From NCBI GenBank assembly GCA_014075295.1, contig CP046180.1, forward strand, positions 698,458 to 762,457: a stretch of DNA of 64,000 bases, written 5' to 3'. Position numbers and translations under genes: made by a program. Shown one piece after another: positions 7,199-64,000 of the stretch (its first letter is position 1; each line of letters opens with the position of its first letter). This DNA is from Candidatus Mycalebacterium zealandia. GTDB taxonomy: Bacteria; Desulfobacterota_D; UBA1144; Nemesobacterales; Mycalebacteriaceae. The notes beneath the pieces are model-generated. The model ran no database searches, had not been told where the DNA came from, and saw only the letters and a list, made by a program, of their open reading frames with translations.

Positions 7199-7208
7199 GG
7201 AGCCGAAA

Positions 7209-7481
7209 ATGCCGCTTGTCAGAATACCCACCCCTCTCAGAAATCTTTCCGGAGACAGAGACGAACTCAACGTTGCCGCCGCAAATATTGGCGATATGAT
7301 TGAAAAACTTGAAGCGGAATGCCCCGGAATGAAAGACCGGCTCTGTGACGAGAGCGGAGAAATCAGAAGGTTTATAAATATCTACGTCAACAACGAAGAC
7401 ATCAGGTTTCTTGACGGAAAAGAAACCGCCCTTTCAGAAAACGACAATGTTTCAATAATCCCCGCAATTGCGGGCGGATGA
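7209..7481 (+). CDS. MoaD/ThiS-family sulfur-carrier protein (C-terminal GG)
   Basis: 90 aa, ends ...IIPAIAGG; ATG at 7209 preceded by AAGGAG RBS; 10 bp after thrC stop. The ORF-track start at 7113 would overlap thrC and is rejected. Confidence 0.75.
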   Translation: MPLVRIPTPLRNLSGDRDELNVAAANIGDMIEKLEAECPGMKDRLCDESGEIRRFINIYVNNEDIRFLDGKETALSENDNVSIIPAIAGG

Positions 7482-7491
7482 GGATTTATAA

Positions 7492-7535
7492 GGCGGTTTA
7501 CCCGTACAAGCGTGTAACCAAGTCTTTTTTTGGAA
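7492..7535 (+). terminator. putative rho-independent terminator after the MoaD-like gene
   Basis: Imperfect hairpin GGTTTAC...GTAACC followed by T7 run (aagtctttttttgg). Confidence 0.35.
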
Positions 7536-7544
7536 GAGCAGGCA

Positions 7545-58463: not shown

Positions 58464-59402
58464 TCAGCCGGAATACGCCGCGCAGGTGATTTTCATCACC
58501 TCAACGTTGCTCTGTTTTCCAACCGCGCCCGGCACAATAATTGGAAGTTCAACCCCCGCTTCTCTGTGCGCTTCAAGCTGTTCTCTGCAACGCGCCGCTG
58601 GGCCCACAAGCGCGACAGCGTCAACCAATTCGTCTGTGAAAACCTCATGCGGTTTTTCGCCCGCCTGAATTTTTTCAACCACGTCGCCGTGTCCGATGTT
58701 TTTTATGAGACGCTGGTAAAACGGAAAGCGTGCGTAACCGGAAAGCCCCATTTTTGCGGCTTTGATGGCGTCTTCCAGACTGTCTGAAATAAATGAGGGA
58801 ATTCCGTTGGTGATTTCAATTTCCGAGGGGTCTCTTCCCGCTTCTTTTGCTCCCTCCGCGACCTGCTCTTTTAACTGCTTAACATATTCAGGCGGAGACA
58901 TATACGGCATAAGCCCGTCCGCCGCTTTGCCCGCCAGATGCGCCGCGGAGTTTGTCAACCCGGCTATGTGAACGGGAAAGTCCGGAAGGTCGCGTTTGAT
59001 TGTCAACAGCTCCGAGGAGCCGTCCAAAATGGGTCTGAGTTCGGAAATGTATTCTTCCATCTTCTCAACCGGATTGCCCATATCTATTCCGAATTTGTCA
59101 TTGACGGGCTTGTGGCTCACTCCGAGGCCAAGCACCATTCTTCCGCCCGAAACCTCCTGAACGGTAAGCGCTTCAGCGGCGCAGATGACGGGTTTGCGCA
59201 TAAATATGTTTGTTATCCACGTGCCGACTTTAATTGTTGAAGTTGCTTCGGCGAACACCTGTGCGTTGGAAATCGCGCTGTAAGGCGGAACTTCAGGCGA
59301 GAAAATCGCTTCGAAACCCGCATTCTCCGCTTCGCGTGCGAGATCTCTTAAATCATCGACTCCACAGCCCCATACGGGGGAAATAGTTGCTACTTTTGCC
59401 AT
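58464..59402 (-). CDS. LLM-class (luciferase-like) flavin/F420-dependent oxidoreductase
   Basis: 312 aa; TIM-barrel luciferase-like family pattern (LGLGVSH, VGTWITN). Confidence 0.7.
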   Translation of the reverse strand: MAKVATISPVWGCGVDDLRDLAREAENAGFEAIFSPEVPPYSAISNAQVFAEATSTIKVGTWITNIFMRKPVICAAEALTVQEVSGGRMVLGLGVSHKPVNDKFGIDMGNPVEKMEEYISELRPILDGSSELLTIKRDLPDFPVHIAGLTNSAAHLAGKAADGLMPYMSPPEYVKQLKEQVAEGAKEAGRDPSEIEITNGIPSFISDSLEDAIKAAKMGLSGYARFPFYQRLIKNIGHGDVVEKIQAGEKPHEVFTDELVDAVALVGPAARCREQLEAHREAGVELPIIVPGAVGKQSNVEVMKITCAAYSG

Positions 59403-59488
59403 TTTACGCTCCCTTGAGGTTTTGCCGCCTCTTTGATTACTTCCAATAAAATAACCTGTAAAACGGAAAAATTACAATCCGCCCGCTT

Positions 59489-59517
59489 TTGACACCGCGC
59501 GGGGTTGGGATTATAAT
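59489..59517 (+). promoter_or_regulatory. consensus sigma-70 promoter TTGACA-N17-TATAAT
   Basis: Exact TTGACA (59489-59494), 17-nt spacer, exact TATAAT (59512-59517); predicted TSS lies 7-8 nt downstream, at or just before the ATG at 59525. Confidence 0.5.
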
Positions 59518-59524
59518 CACCCTG

Positions 59525-59626
59525 ATGAAGAAAACCGGAGCTGAAATCTACATAATCGGGGTTTTTGTTTTAGTCGCCTCAATTCTTCTTATTGCGTCCC
59601 TCACGCATGTTTTTTTGAAACCTTGA
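59525..59626 (+). CDS. candidate leaderless small membrane peptide (33 aa, single TM)
   Basis: MKKTGAEIYIIGVFVLVASILLIASLTHVFLKP; ATG begins ~8 nt after the -10 hexamer with no SD; it is below the ORF-track length cutoff. Confidence 0.35.
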   Translation: MKKTGAEIYIIGVFVLVASILLIASLTHVFLKP

Positions 59627-59747
59627 TGTACAAAAAGAGGCAAGTCCAATAGCGAACATCTCTGTTTACGGCAACAGGTCAGGCCTTACGGGCAGAGAAA
59701 TCAAGATACTTCTCAAGATTTATTCAAAATCTGTTGACCCGAACAAG

Positions 59748-61316
59748 GTGATGACGCCGGAATTCAGTTCCGCGCTTTGCAGGGCATCGGAGGCGGTCAA
59801 AAGGAACGTGGCGGTTCTGCTCAATAAAAAAGGCAGAGTGGCGGCGGTTTTCGAGGGAAATTGCGGCGATTTTGAACTCGCGTCGTTCTTCAGAAGGTAT
59901 CGTGACACCGGGCGCGGAGTCAGAAACTTCCGGCTCATTCTCACACATGCCGACGGGCGCGGACTTACGGACAACGAGAAATTCACGCTTATAAACGAAC
60001 GGCTTGAAATCGTGGGAGTTGTTCAGATGAGAGGCGATGGCGCGGACAAGTTCGAGTTTGCCTACCCTCTTGTTCCTGCCACGGAGCGCAACGATTCTGA
60101 AAAATGGAAAATCGTGGAGTTTTCCGATTGCTCAAATGTCAATTTTGATATTGAAAGCGCCCTTGAACCGGTAAAAAACAGACGTTTTGTCCCGCTGAAT
60201 CCGCGTCGCAAAAACATAGAGCACATTTTTCTCATCGCGATGGGGCGTTCGCAGAAAGAAGCAGAAACATCATTGCAAGAACTTGAGACCCTTGCCGTTT
60301 CCGCCGGAAAAAAGATTCTGGGCTCGCGCGTTCACATTCTCAAACGGTCAAAAAAATCCGTTGGCAACACTGTTCTTGGAGAGAAAAAATTGACTGATTT
60401 CCTTTTGCTCGCTAAACACGAAGCCGCGGGCGCGGTGATTTTTGACACCGAACTTGCGCCATCTGAAATTTCCGAAATACAAAGCCGCACGGATATGAGA
60501 ATTGTTGACCGGACGCAACTCATACTTGAGATATTTTCCCTGCGGGCTTCCTCAAAAGAGGGAAAATTGCAGGTCAAACTCGCGGAACTCAAATACGCCC
60601 TGCCCCGTCTTTCGGGAAGCGGAATTCAGATGTCGCAGCCCGGCGCGGGAATTGGAACAAGAGGTCCCGGGGAGAAAGCGCTTGAAAAGGAAAGAAGGCA
60701 ACTCAGAAAACGGATAAGGGATTTGGAGAAGCAGATGGAGGCGATATCCGGCAGGAGAGAGCGGACGCGGGCGAACCGCATGAGAGGAAACACGGAGATT
60801 GTTTCGCTTGCGGGCTACACAAACGCGGGCAAATCCACTCTGTTTTCCGCTTTGACAAAAGAGGACACGGAAATCGCGGACAAGATGTTTTCCACGCTCG
60901 GAACAAAAACCCGCAGGATGTATTCGCCGCGGAACTCCACCATTCTTCTCACCGACACGGTCGGTTTTATTAAAGACCTTCCCAAAGATCTGGCGATGGC
61001 GTTCAGGGCGACTTTGGAAGAGCTGGGCAAAGCCGATTTACTGCTTCACGTGGCGGATGCGGGCGATTTGGACGTTGAGAACAAAATAGAATCCGTTGAA
61101 TCCATACTTGATTCAATGGGATTTGGCGAAGTTCCCAGACTGCTTGTGTTTAACAAAACCGACATTGCTCCCCTTCAAAAACTAAGAGACCTTTCCGTGA
61201 TTTATCCCAAAGCCATTTTCGTTTCCGCAGCCGCGCGGGACAATCTCGGCGAGATAGCGGCACGCGCGGACAAGATTTTAAAAGACCGCAAACAAAACTA
61301 CTCTCTTGCGATATAA
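59748..61316 (+). CDS. hflX: GTPase HflX with ~148-aa N-terminal extension
   Basis: HflX N-domain begins near IEHIFLIAMGRSQKEAE; G1 AGYTNAGKSTLF, G3 DTVGF, G4 NKTD; the extension has no stop and is in frame. Confidence 0.8.
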   Translation: MMTPEFSSALCRASEAVKRNVAVLLNKKGRVAAVFEGNCGDFELASFFRRYRDTGRGVRNFRLILTHADGRGLTDNEKFTLINERLEIVGVVQMRGDGADKFEFAYPLVPATERNDSEKWKIVEFSDCSNVNFDIESALEPVKNRRFVPLNPRRKNIEHIFLIAMGRSQKEAETSLQELETLAVSAGKKILGSRVHILKRSKKSVGNTVLGEKKLTDFLLLAKHEAAGAVIFDTELAPSEISEIQSRTDMRIVDRTQLILEIFSLRASSKEGKLQVKLAELKYALPRLSGSGIQMSQPGAGIGTRGPGEKALEKERRQLRKRIRDLEKQMEAISGRRERTRANRMRGNTEIVSLAGYTNAGKSTLFSALTKEDTEIADKMFSTLGTKTRRMYSPRNSTILLTDTVGFIKDLPKDLAMAFRATLEELGKADLLLHVADAGDLDVENKIESVESILDSMGFGEVPRLLVFNKTDIAPLQKLRDLSVIYPKAIFVSAAARDNLGEIAARADKILKDRKQNYSLAI

Positions 61317-62450
61317 ATGATGATTTCATACGAAAGAATGTCCGACCACTTGATGAGCATCATCCGCATAGACAGCGAGTCGCGTTTTGAAAAAGATGTC
61401 GCGCTTGTTCTGGAAAAGGAAATGAAGGAGATAGGCGGCGAATGTTTTTATGACGATTGCGGCGAAAAAGTCGGCGGAAACACGGGCAATCTGATTGTCA
61501 AAATTAAAGGCAATACGGACGCGCCGCCGTTTTTCCTTTGCTCGCATATGGACACGGTCGCTCCCGGAAAAGGCATAAAGCCCTCAATTAAAGACGGCAT
61601 TATGAGAAGCGACGGAACCACAATTCTCGGTAGCGACGACAAAAGCGGAGTTTCCATAATTGTTGAAGTGGTTCGTTCCCTCAAAGAGCGCGACCTGCCC
61701 CACGGCGATATTGAAATAGCGTTCATGATATGCGAGGAAGTCGGGCTTTTGGGGGCAAAATTCATTGACTGTTCGGTTTTTGAATCCTCTTACGGAATTG
61801 TTCTGGACAGCAGCACTCCCGACCGTCTTGTTCTGAAATGCCCGGCTTCAGACAGAATCAAGGTCAAAATCACCGGTGTTGAGGCGCACGCGGGGCTGTG
61901 CCCCGAAGACGGGGTCAGCGCTATAGAGATTGCGTCAAAAGCCATAGCAAAAATGAATTTGGGAAGAATAGATTCTGAAACCACCGCGAACATCGGCACA
62001 ATTTCGGGCGGAAGCGCGATAAACATTGTTCCGGGCGAGACCGAAGTTATCGGCGAGGCGAGAAGCCACAACACCGAAAAACTCGCGGTGCAAATGGACC
62101 ATATGAGGAAATGTTTTGAGAAAGCGTCAACTGAAGTTTGCGGCGATACTTCCGCCGTGCAAATTGAACAGGAACACATTTACTTTCCGATGGACGTTCC
62201 CCCTTCGTCCGAAATCGCGAAAATGGTTGAGGAAACTGCAAACAATCTCGGTCATCCGGTTGCTCTTCACACAAGCGGCGGCGGTTGCGACGCGAACTAC
62301 ATCAATGGCAAGGGAATTCAATGTGTAAATCTGGGAACGGGAATGTATGATCTTCACACTGTTGACGAGCATCTTGTTATTGAAGAGTTCAACAGGTCAG
62401 CAGACATTGTTCTCCGCACCATTATGAAAAATGCCGGACACCAAAACTAA
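61317..62450 (+). CDS. M20-family metallopeptidase (peptidase T-like)
   Basis: 377 aa; metal ligands HMDTV, GSDDKSG, EE region (ICEEVGLLGA), GGGCDAN. Confidence 0.8.
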   Translation: MMISYERMSDHLMSIIRIDSESRFEKDVALVLEKEMKEIGGECFYDDCGEKVGGNTGNLIVKIKGNTDAPPFFLCSHMDTVAPGKGIKPSIKDGIMRSDGTTILGSDDKSGVSIIVEVVRSLKERDLPHGDIEIAFMICEEVGLLGAKFIDCSVFESSYGIVLDSSTPDRLVLKCPASDRIKVKITGVEAHAGLCPEDGVSAIEIASKAIAKMNLGRIDSETTANIGTISGGSAINIVPGETEVIGEARSHNTEKLAVQMDHMRKCFEKASTEVCGDTSAVQIEQEHIYFPMDVPPSSEIAKMVEETANNLGHPVALHTSGGGCDANYINGKGIQCVNLGTGMYDLHTVDEHLVIEEFNRSADIVLRTIMKNAGHQN

Positions 62451-62829
62451 CAAACGGGCTCTCATTCTTGTTGACCACGGAAGCAACGTTGCCGAAGCGA
62501 ACGGCGTGCTTGCCGAAGTTGCCAATGAGATAAGACAGAGAGGTGCGGGTTTTGATATTGTTGAATACTGTCACATGGAGATAGCGTCTCCGACAATGGA
62601 AGAGGCGTTTCAAAAATGCGCCGAACTTGGCGCAGGCGAAGTGGTTGTTCACCCCTATTTTCTTGTTCCGGGAAGGCATTCGGGTTTTGATATTCCGGCA
62701 ATGGCAAAAGAAGCGGCGGAAAAATTTCCAAATTTGAAGCACACCGTTACCGATCCGCTCGGTCTTCACGAAAAAATTGTGGATGTTGTTCTGGAGCGGG
62801 TTTCTTCCGTGTGTTGGACGAAGGGGTAA
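62431..62829 (+). CDS. cbiX: sirohydrochlorin cobalto/ferro-chelatase, small CbiX type
   Basis: 132 aa; LILVDHGS...HPYFL.PGRH pattern of CbiX(S)/SirB. Confidence 0.75.
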   Translation: MPDTKTNKRALILVDHGSNVAEANGVLAEVANEIRQRGAGFDIVEYCHMEIASPTMEEAFQKCAELGAGEVVVHPYFLVPGRHSGFDIPAMAKEAAEKFPNLKHTVTDPLGLHEKIVDVVLERVSSVCWTKG

Positions 62830-62836
62830 ATCTCAT

Positions 62837-64000
62837 ATGGAGAAAGAGGTTATAAATAAATTGCTTGGTCCGGAGTTTATAAAAACCGCGACAGTTGAAG
62901 ATATTGAAAGAGAAATCAGAGACGGAGCAGATGTTAATGCAAAAAATGAATTTGACTGGACGGTTCTGATGAAGGCGGCAAGATTCAACACCAATCCAGA
63001 AATCATTACCACTCTTGTCAAAAACGGAGCGGATGTTAACGCGAGAGATGAAAACGGCATTACGGTTCTGATGAGAGCGGTAGCTAACAACACCAATCCG
63101 GAAATCATTACCAATCTTGTCAAAAACGGAGCGGATGTTCACGCGAGAGATGAAAACGGCATTACGGTTCTGATGAGAGCGGTAGCTAACAACACCAATC
63201 TGGAAATTATTACCGCTCTTATTGAAAACGGAGCGGATATTAACGCAAGAGATGAAAACGACGCGACGGTTCTGATGGTCGCGGCACAGTTCAACCCCAA
63301 TCCGGAAATCATTGATGCTCTTGTTCAAAACGGAGCGGATGCTAACGCAAGGGATGAAAACGGCGTGACGGTTCTGATGGTCGCGGCACAGTTCAACCCC
63401 AATCCGGAAATCATTGATGCTCTTGTTCAAAACGGAGCGGATGTTAACGCGAGAGATGAAAACGGCATGACGGCTCTTGTGTTCGCGACAATGTTCAACA
63501 CTAATCCGGAAGTCATTACCGCTCTTATTGAAAACGGAGCGGATGTTCACGCGAGAGATGAAAACGGCATTACGGTTCTGATGAGAGCGGCAATAAACAA
63601 CACCAATCTGGAAATTATTACCGCTCTTATTGAAAACGGAGCGGATGTTAACGCAAGAGATGAAAACGACGCGACGGTTCTGATGGTCGCGGCACAGTTC
63701 AACCCCAATCCGGAAATCATTGATGCTCTTGTTCAAAACGGAGCGGATGTTCACGCGAGAGATGAAAACGGCATTACGGTTCTGATGAGAGCGGTAGCTA
63801 ACAACACCAATCTGGAAATTATTACCGCTCTTATTGAAAACGGAGCGGATGTTCACGCGAGAGATGAAAACGGCATTACGGCTCTGGTGTTTGCGGCAGA
63901 GAACAATACCAATCCGGAAATCATTACCTCTCTTATTAAAAATGGAGCGAATGTTAACGCAAGATATGAAAACGGCAGAACGGCTCTGATGTTGGCGGTA
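62837..64000 (+). CDS. ankyrin-repeat protein with ten or more near-identical 33-aa repeats; 3' end beyond window
   Basis: ATG 62837; repeats DENGITVLMRAVANNTNPEIITNLVKNGADVHAR at 99-bp periodicity from ~62930 to window end. The reading frame is open to position 64000 and so is not in the ORF track. Confidence 0.8.
   Translation, partial: MEKEVINKLLGPEFIKTATVEDIEREIRDGADVNAKNEFDWTVLMKAARFNTNPEIITTLVKNGADVNARDENGITVLMRAVANNTNPEIITNLVKNGADVHARDENGITVLMRAVANNTNLEIITALIENGADINARDENDATVLMVAAQFNPNPEIIDALVQNGADANARDENGVTVLMVAAQFNPNPEIIDALVQNGADVNARDENGMTALVFATMFNTNPEVITALIENGADVHARDENGITVLMRAAINNTNLEIITALIENGADVNARDENDATVLMVAAQFNPNPEIIDALVQNGADVHARDENGITVLMRAVANNTNLEIITALIENGADVHARDENGITALVFAAENNTNPEIITSLIKNGANVNARYENGRTALMLAV
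62930..64000 (+). repeat. tandem 99-bp near-identical coding repeats (ankyrin units)
   Basis: e.g. 63062-63160 vs 63161-63259 and 63260-63358 vs 63359-63457 differ at only a few positions. Confidence 0.85.

Follow-up and report, generated by a model that had tools for sequence, protein, structure and literature searches.

We analyzed a window (the whole stretch of DNA considered here, 64 kb) from Candidatus Mycalebacterium zealandia (Dadabacteria), an organism that NCBI taxonomy assigns to the class Dadabacteria in the phylum Thermodesulfobacteriota; the HflX encoded in the window is 100% identical to the one annotated for it. At positions 59525–59626 of the plus strand of the window, upstream of hflX, the gene of a ribosome-splitting GTPase, lies a 33-codon open reading frame (ORF; MKKTGAEIYIIGVFVLVASILLIASLTHVFLKP, TGA stop at 59624–59626) that is unannotated in the source genome and that, on comparative grounds, is a genuine protein-coding gene, as indicated by its conservation and by selection specific to its frame. 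The explanation that we favor, and consider likely, is a composite one: the ORF would be a leaderless gene for a membrane microprotein that acts in trans and that, in the Mycalebacterium clade, also heads the hflX operon.

A conserved reading frame behind a consensus promoter

The peptide gene was compared across 19 distinct loci, which fall into two clades. The window clade comprises nine loci, namely the window and eight distinct relatives whose HflX ranges from 89% down to 56% identity to that of the window, and the sister clade comprises 11 Dadabacteria loci (10 distinct; L012–L022), three with HflX about 44% identical and eight from JGI metagenomes. The earlier note on this DNA had left room for a case in which relatives conserve the promoter alone; the ORF itself was kept in all 19 distinct loci. 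Relatives with HflX 56–89% identical carry a peptide 73–94% identical to that of the window, indicating that the peptide is better conserved than HflX. For the nine close loci, summed pairwise Nei–Gojobori comparisons gave a ratio of nonsynonymous to synonymous differences (pN/pS) of 0.167 in frame versus 1.46 and 2.94 in the shifted frames, and the variable columns, counted by codon position out of 31, numbered 12 at the first, 5 at the second and 30 at the third position. With all loci of the family included, pN/pS was 0.33 in frame versus 1.0 and 2.3 off frame. As read from these alignments, the codon pattern shows a protein under selection, and not an RNA or DNA element. The start that the relatives share is the ATG at 59525; a 45-residue ORF with a TTG start (59489–59626) is a mechanical call whose TTG belongs to the −35 hexamer of the promoter. 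The gene is present as a single copy within the window, and the peptide has also been called by gene callers in other assemblies.

Analyses at the RNA level gave no match in Rfam for positions 58900–60300 at E values up to 10, and the putative leader, folded as a single sequence, did not surpass its shuffled versions (z = +0.89). The aligned region showed weak consensus structure only (alifold −9.75 kcal/mol, covariation −0.42, three compensatory pairs of 31). A terminator-like hairpin with a T-run is found inside the peptide ORF at 59593–59617 of the plus strand, and its stem and T-run are absent or broken in most of the 18 relatives. An intrinsic terminator or attenuator at this place was rejected, as the element is kept only in the window and a few relatives, and we judge that the hairpin arises from the coding sequence and has no attenuating function.

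The −35 hexamer TTGACA (59489–59494) and the −10 hexamer TATAAT (59512–59517), both on the plus strand and separated by 17 nucleotides (nt), form the perfect sigma-70 consensus that had been described as rare in real genomes. A scan of both strands of the 64 kb gave this site as the sole 12/12 match, and 100 dinucleotide-preserving shuffles gave none. The −35 hexamer is invariant in 9/9 window-clade loci and the complete 12/12 promoter is kept in eight of them despite a freely varying spacer sequence, the layout in these eight being TTGACA, an unconstrained spacer of 16–18 nt, TATAAT, and a gap of 6–10 nt to the ATG. The ninth locus, L003, has TTGACA, a 17-nt spacer, TATACT and a gap of 8 nt. 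In the sister clade the −35 is TTTACA or TTGCAA, the spacer 16–17 nt, the −10 TATAAT, TATATT, TATCCT or TATTCT, and the gap 6–9 nt. The window ATG (59525–59527) falls 7 nt past the −10, which upholds the close spacing reported earlier and corrects its distance of about 8 nt.

The start codon is ATG in every one of the 19 loci, always 6–10 nt past the −10, and GTG or TTG is never used. No Shine–Dalgarno (SD)-like motif (GGAG, GAGG, AGGA or AAGG) was found at −20 to −4 of the ATG in any of the 19 loci, and in the window there is too little room upstream for an SD sequence and none is present. Sigma-70 transcription usually starts about 7 nt downstream of the −10 hexamer, and the predicted transcription start of the window is G59524 or A59525 on the plus strand, with a leader of 0–1 nt. 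Gaps of 6–10 nt combined with such a start imply leaders of about 0–3 nt across the 19 loci, from which we infer a leaderless mRNA, in agreement with the earlier proposal, which rested on the same geometry. Leaderless mRNAs are exemplified by lambda cI transcribed from PRM and are abundant in Mycobacterium and Deinococcus. The peptide gene resembles them in the short distance from the −10 to an invariant AUG and in having no SD sequence, and it differs from typical cases in that, in the window clade, an SD-led and probably AUA-initiated cistron begins 22 nt behind this putatively leaderless one. On leaderless mRNAs, 70S ribosomes bind directly at the 5′ AUG, the AUG is required and initiation is sensitive to IF3 (PMC9031893); the invariant AUG of the peptide gene fits this requirement. 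The arrangement is not the local norm, since in a crude survey of 51 ORF starts of the window (taken as longest-ORF starts) 15 had an SD-like motif and just three combined the lack of such a motif with a TAnnnT sequence 5–10 nt upstream.

Membrane segment, protein family and sister clade

Residues 8–31 (IYIIGVFVLVASILLIASLTHVFL; 59546–59617, plus strand) make up a hydrophobic, predicted transmembrane (TM) segment that holds most of the residues invariant across the family (Y9, I10, G12, I23, A24, L26, T27, H28 and L31); P33, the C-terminal residue just beyond it, is also invariant. The 19-residue Kyte–Doolittle maximum, taken over a length that suffices to cross the bilayer, is 2.81 for the window peptide, which by this measure has a clear TM helix, and 2.5–2.7 for sister-clade members. 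This hydropathy, together with the strong frame-specific purifying selection, substantiates the single-TM peptide of 33 codons that the earlier note had described, and it suggests a single-pass, tail-anchor-like membrane microprotein.

A profile search of 5.8 billion proteins returned 134 clusters at E ≤ 1, the 120 of them listed having E ≤ 4.5e-9 and lengths of 34–85 residues. Among the matches listed, every name given by the source is 'hypothetical protein', none has a Pfam domain, and the sequences originate from Dadabacteria, Thermodesulfobacteriota or 'Deltaproteobacteria' metagenome-assembled genomes (MAGs). The core common to the family is EKEGxxYIxG-x10-[IL]ASLTHVVLxP. A search of a representative library with the single peptide gave one match, and a degenerate DNA pattern, written by hand to encode the invariant residues, matched eight stretches in JGI metagenomes, all eight of which proved to be true members; a scan of metagenomes with the peptide alignment gave 238 pattern matches, none of them confirmed by tblastn. 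Sequence searches of the peptide against Pfam, NCBIfam, PADLOC and PDB yielded no significant match, and a profile search of PDB gave insignificant matches of TM composition only (Sec61-beta and LH2-alpha, E ≥ 0.37). As far as sampled, the peptide thus defines an uncharacterized family that appears confined to Dadabacteria and Thermodesulfobacteriota MAGs.

Two further observations concern the family. Many members from other Dadabacteria or Thermodesulfobacteriota MAGs (P0175, P0178, P0194, P0225 and others) are called at 50–55 residues, with an acidic or lysine-rich N-terminal extension (MSEQEKEQHELDIKKMFELNEREKEG...), which could either be genuine or reflect leaderless genes whose starts were called wrongly. 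In addition, several family and HflX matches come from short contigs of the same length, for example 4081 nt (P0235 and P0019), which hints at a possibly wider linkage of the peptide to hflX.

In its general build the peptide is comparable to AcrZ, KdpF, CydX, MgtS and Prli42, which have 30–55 residues, one hydrophobic helix and short polar ends, are conserved within their lineage and are routinely missed by annotation. Unlike these, it shares sequence similarity with none of them, has no obvious membrane complex encoded beside it and is predicted to be translated from a leaderless mRNA.

The sister clade separates the peptide gene from hflX. There the homolog, in the three loci with HflX about 44% identical a 38-residue ORF (MFDLEPHEKEGxxYIxG...IASLTHxxLxP), has a stop codon of TAA or TAG, and its pN/pS is 0.36 in frame versus 0.99 and 1.77 off frame. 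The gene order is LLM oxidoreductase (minus strand), a 298-residue radical SAM protein (minus), the peptide (plus), a convergent gene of 155–157 codons (minus) and hflX (plus), with 550–650 nt from the peptide stop to the hflX coding sequence and promoter-like sequences of its own upstream of hflX. The peptide is thus conserved even where a convergent gene cuts it off from hflX, which argues for an independent gene and not merely a leader of hflX. The product of the convergent gene (155–157 residues) has no match to known families; the gene (for example L013, 2380–2847, minus strand) ends at or overlaps the peptide stop, and its transcript may run antisense into the sister-clade peptide gene. 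Neither this gene nor the radical SAM gene is present in the window.

The start of hflX and its junction with the peptide gene

The downstream gene is hflX, assigned by a score of 368.6 bits against the TIGR03156 equivalog (cutoff 216.75). Its annotated start is the ATG at 59751 (521 residues), and the 34 codons upstream of this ATG are themselves conserved as coding sequence, with a pN/pS of 0.40 in frame versus 1.15 and 1.10 off frame and the consensus I[AG]xxSVYGxKSGLTxREIKLxLKxYSKxxDPxxV. No ATG, GTG or TTG occurs between the in-frame stop, located 5–10 codons upstream, and this block in any of the nine window-clade loci, the sole near-cognate codon common to the nine being an invariant ATA. 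The ATA is invariant in 16/16 loci with a located hflX 5′ end, and 13 of these 16 have no canonical alternative: in L013 and L020 a stop, AGT and ATA follow one another, so that there is no alternative start, and L014 and L022 likewise have no canonical hflX start, while L012, L019 and L021 have an ATG 5–7 codons upstream of the ATA. A sequence GAGG, GGAG or GGGG lies 7–10 nt before the ATA in all loci (7–9 nt in the window clade); in the window it is AGAGG at 59636–59640 of the plus strand, 8 nt before the ATA. An AlphaFold model of HflX residues 1–204, counted from the ATA, has a mean pLDDT (predicted local distance difference test) of 82, and residues 11–30 reach 93–94, implying that the restored segment belongs to the folded domain. 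The start of hflX is therefore probably the rare ATA at 59649, 34 codons before the annotated ATG, which gives a gene of 555 codons at 59649–61316 of the plus strand.

AUA starts with strong SD sequences have been described for infC, ccpN and citZ of Staphylococcus aureus, and an AUU start for infC of Escherichia coli (PMC13009471). The hflX AUA resembles these in having a GAGG or GGAG sequence at 7–10 nt; it is unlike them in the gene concerned and in its position 22 nt behind a leaderless cistron, and its use is predicted from comparison. No report of a non-AUG start for hflX was found, and no search aimed at one was made. The N-terminal extension of HflX (about 190 residues, 59649–60220) has no match in Pfam or NCBIfam and is predicted with a mean pLDDT of 82; the closest fold in PDB, of an MPN/JAMM-like kind, matches only weakly (CSN5, E 7.9e-4, TM-score 0.36), and we made no assignment.

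The spacer from the peptide stop to the ATA is 22 nt in the window clade (9/9 loci, with 21 nt in L007), and a consensus scan from 59518 to hflX found no further promoter-like site, which makes it very probable that the consensus promoter also serves hflX. The M20 peptidase gene (61317–62450, plus strand) follows hflX without a gap, and the cbiX gene (62431–62829, plus) overlaps the peptidase gene, an order that is kept in the relatives. A single transcript from the consensus promoter probably covers the peptide gene, hflX, the M20 peptidase gene and cbiX.

At the junction, a hypothetical 8-codon ORF in the third frame (59626–59652, plus strand) bridges the two cistrons: it begins with an ATG that shares bases with the peptide stop (TGATG) and closes with a TAG (59650–59652) that shares bases with the hflX ATA (ATAG). 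All nine window-clade loci keep this mini-ORF open and preserve a start codon for it; in L007, where the spacer is 1 nt shorter, the ATG is shifted so that the frame of the mini-ORF stays. The sister clade does not conserve it. In 5/9 window-clade loci the hflX frame is interrupted by a stop codon within the spacer, on which ground a peptide–HflX fusion through a +1 frameshift at CCU-UGA was rejected. The junction features suggest termination–reinitiation that feeds the weak AUA, with translation of the mini-ORF as a prediction. The stop codon of the peptide gene is TGA in 9/9 window-clade loci, despite near-saturation of synonymous sites and although just 11 of the 52 stops in the window are TGA.

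The surroundings of the operon are also conserved. In all eight window-clade relatives the genes run from acyl-CoA ligase through LLM oxidoreductase (minus strand) and, beyond a gap of 314–362 nt, to hflX, M20 peptidase and CbiX. The divergent neighbor is an LLM oxidoreductase of the F420-type, luciferase-like kind (58464–59402, minus strand; assigned by domain match and syntenic in all loci). That note had also called the interval the largest gap of the window, at 345 bp. The length is right with respect to the annotated or longest-ORF start of hflX (59403–59747), and the rank holds approximately, since 7199–7544 (346 nt) is just as large when only ORFs of 120 residues or more are roughly listed; once the peptide gene is counted and hflX is taken to begin at 59649, the truly non-coding parts are 59403–59524 and 59627–59648. 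In the assembly GCA_011087705.1 the interval between the LLM oxidoreductase and hflX is without any annotated gene, and the peptide is not called there. A scan of genome contigs based on HflX returned a single distant locus, from Halanaerobiaceae, and in the literature nothing was found on Mycalebacterium or on small proteins of Dadabacteria. Upstream of the peptide promoter, the minus strand reads TTGTAA at 59472–59477, where AATT[AG]CAA is kept in 7/9 window-clade loci; this is possibly a −35-like element, TTG[TC]AA, of the divergent LLM gene. At the far end of the window, 62922–63998 of the plus strand, running past the window end, carries ten copies of a 102-nt tandem repeat of ankyrin type (TVLMIAAENNTNPEIITALIENGADVNARDENGI), and a 369-residue ORF on the minus strand (62747–63856) is probably a shadow of this ankyrin-repeat gene. 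Such eukaryote-like repeat proteins are common in sponge symbionts.

Alternative explanations and biological meaning

According to the favored explanation, the consensus sigma-70 promoter would start the transcript on the AUG or 1–3 nt before it, and the leaderless, SD-less mRNA would be translated through direct binding of 70S ribosomes at its 5′ AUG. The protein would then act in trans in the membrane, most likely as a small subunit that assists or regulates a larger membrane protein, in the manner of known bacterial single-TM microproteins. A rearrangement in the Mycalebacterium clade would have placed the peptide cistron 22 nt upstream of hflX, which, having no promoter of its own there, would be driven by the peptide promoter and start at the conserved SD sequence and AUA; the abutting M20-peptidase and cbiX genes would probably be driven by the same promoter. 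Ribosomes that finish the peptide ORF would be well placed to feed the weak AUA start, which points to translational coupling from the peptide gene to hflX. The peptide gene would thus have a secondary role in cis in this clade, as the first cistron of the hflX operon.

Several points weigh against this explanation or limit its reach. Leaderlessness and translation are both deduced by comparing loci, and the 10-nt gaps of L004 and L005 imply leaders of 3 nt, which are not strictly leaderless. The charge of the N-terminal tail differs by clade (KKTG/KNRTGG versus FDLEPHEKEG), which makes the membrane topology uncertain. The role of an accessory subunit, though the most likely one, is an analogy with other microproteins and not a result; co-transcription with hflX assumes that no internal promoter exists of a type invisible to a consensus scan; and the genomic context covers only two clades.

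The alternative that survives best, which we nevertheless consider unlikely, is that the ORF is chiefly a cis-acting upstream ORF (uORF) of hflX, whose translation, nascent peptide or pause at Pro-UGA would set the supply of ribosomes to the weak AUA, tying hflX output to the idle 70S pool or to IF3 activity, with no function of the peptide in trans. The fixed spacer between the peptide stop and the SD-led ATA, the uniform TGA stop, set against the share of TGA among window stops, the invariant C-terminal proline and the mini-ORF that bridges stop and ATA in all nine window-clade loci are all in line with such a role. Leaderless initiation and non-AUG starts are, moreover, both IF3-sensitive (PMC9031893, PMC13009471), and Listeria hflXr is regulated through a short ORF (PMC6310831). 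Against it, purifying selection spans the whole peptide and not the C-terminus alone, and the peptide persists in the sister clade, even though a convergent gene lies behind it there, the promoter of hflX is a separate one 550–650 nt away and the stop is TAA or TAG. In addition, neither a conserved terminator/antiterminator or SD-sequestering structure nor an RLR-type arrest motif was found.

A comparable known system is rli80 of Listeria monocytogenes, a 14-residue translated ORF upstream of hflXr with an RLR arrest motif and alternative terminator/antiterminator hairpins (PMC6310831). In both, a gene of the HflX family is directly preceded by a short ORF with which it shares a transcript, co-transcription being predicted in our case, whereas the window ORF is 33 codons long and hydrophobic, has neither RLR nor conserved hairpins, and is kept where it is not beside hflX. 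An attenuator of the hflXr type is accordingly not supported, given the lack of RLR, the unconserved hairpin and T-run and the weak consensus fold. Nor does a force-sensing arrest peptide such as MifM, SecM or VemP fit: in these the TM or signal segment leaves the ribosome before a C-terminal arrest motif does, which needs a chain much longer than the 30–40 residues held by the ribosomal tunnel, and with 33 residues in total the helix of the window peptide would still be in the tunnel at termination.

A related and equally improbable idea combines both cistrons into a sensor of ribosome state at the Mycalebacterium locus, in which the 70S-only, IF3-antagonized leaderless cistron would relay ribosomes, through UGAUG, the 8-codon ORF and AUAG, to the IF3-disfavored AUA of hflX. 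If this were true, HflX synthesis would rise with idle 70S ribosomes and fall once they are split, and the membrane function of the microprotein would be a separate, older role.

We regard it as very unlikely that the peptide is the precursor of a ribosomally synthesized and post-translationally modified peptide (RiPP) or of a peptide-derived cofactor, matured by a radical SAM enzyme together with the LLM oxidoreductase. The 298-residue radical SAM gene (L013, 1292–2188, minus strand) is indeed the divergent neighbor of the peptide gene in 10/10 distinct sister-clade loci, with the LLM gene beyond it, and in the window clade the LLM gene itself is the divergent neighbor. In the window clade, however, the locus lacks the radical SAM gene, as does all of the 64-kb window, and yet the peptide core has stayed the same. 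The enzyme matches the core Radical_SAM domain only; neither a SPASM- or RRE-type domain nor an NCBIfam family above cutoff was matched. The peptide, for its part, contains no cysteine, is not organized into leader and core, and amounts to a simple hydrophobic helix whose TM segment is invariant and length-matched.

Still less credible is a type I toxin, a membrane-damaging hydrophobic peptide held in check by an antisense RNA, to which the earlier note had likened the peptide. Its small size and single hydrophobic helix do recall Hok, TisB, Ibs and Fst-type toxins. Such toxins are patchily distributed and often multicopy, and a structured 5′ untranslated region (UTR) holds off their translation. 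The window peptide, by contrast, is single-copy, lies in fixed synteny across a class-level lineage (phylum-wide), is under strong purifying selection and has a consensus promoter and, as predicted from its geometry, no 5′ UTR on which translational repression could act; nor did it match PADLOC. The antisense promoter that the same note had proposed to look for was not found: in 8/9 window-clade loci there is no promoter-like site on the minus strand in the ORF or up to 200 nt downstream, and the lone 9/12 match, in L008, overlaps the −35 of the peptide gene and points away from the ORF.

Least tenable of all is a spurious ORF within an untranslated hflX leader of about 120–220 nt or a small RNA, for which the terminator-like hairpin of the window and the lack of annotation in the source genome could be cited, because frame-specific selection and substitutions at third positions, the absence of an Rfam match, the unremarkable leader fold, the unconserved hairpin and the gene calls in other assemblies refute, within the reach of sequence analysis, the long untranslated stretch before hflX that had been raised earlier as the alternative.

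The favored explanation, a leaderless microprotein gene at the head of the hflX operon, would add a conserved and previously unnamed family of small membrane proteins to a lineage known only from metagenomes, and would provide a clean case, established by comparison, of a leaderless gene in a lineage beyond the commonly studied phyla. The start of hflX would also be corrected across Dadabacteria to AUA, restoring 34 N-terminal residues of a folded domain. The unit of promoter, peptide and hflX is compact and easy to clone and appears suited to testing whether leaderless translation couples to a non-AUG start downstream, a question relevant to how cells adjust the amount of a ribosome-recycling factor.

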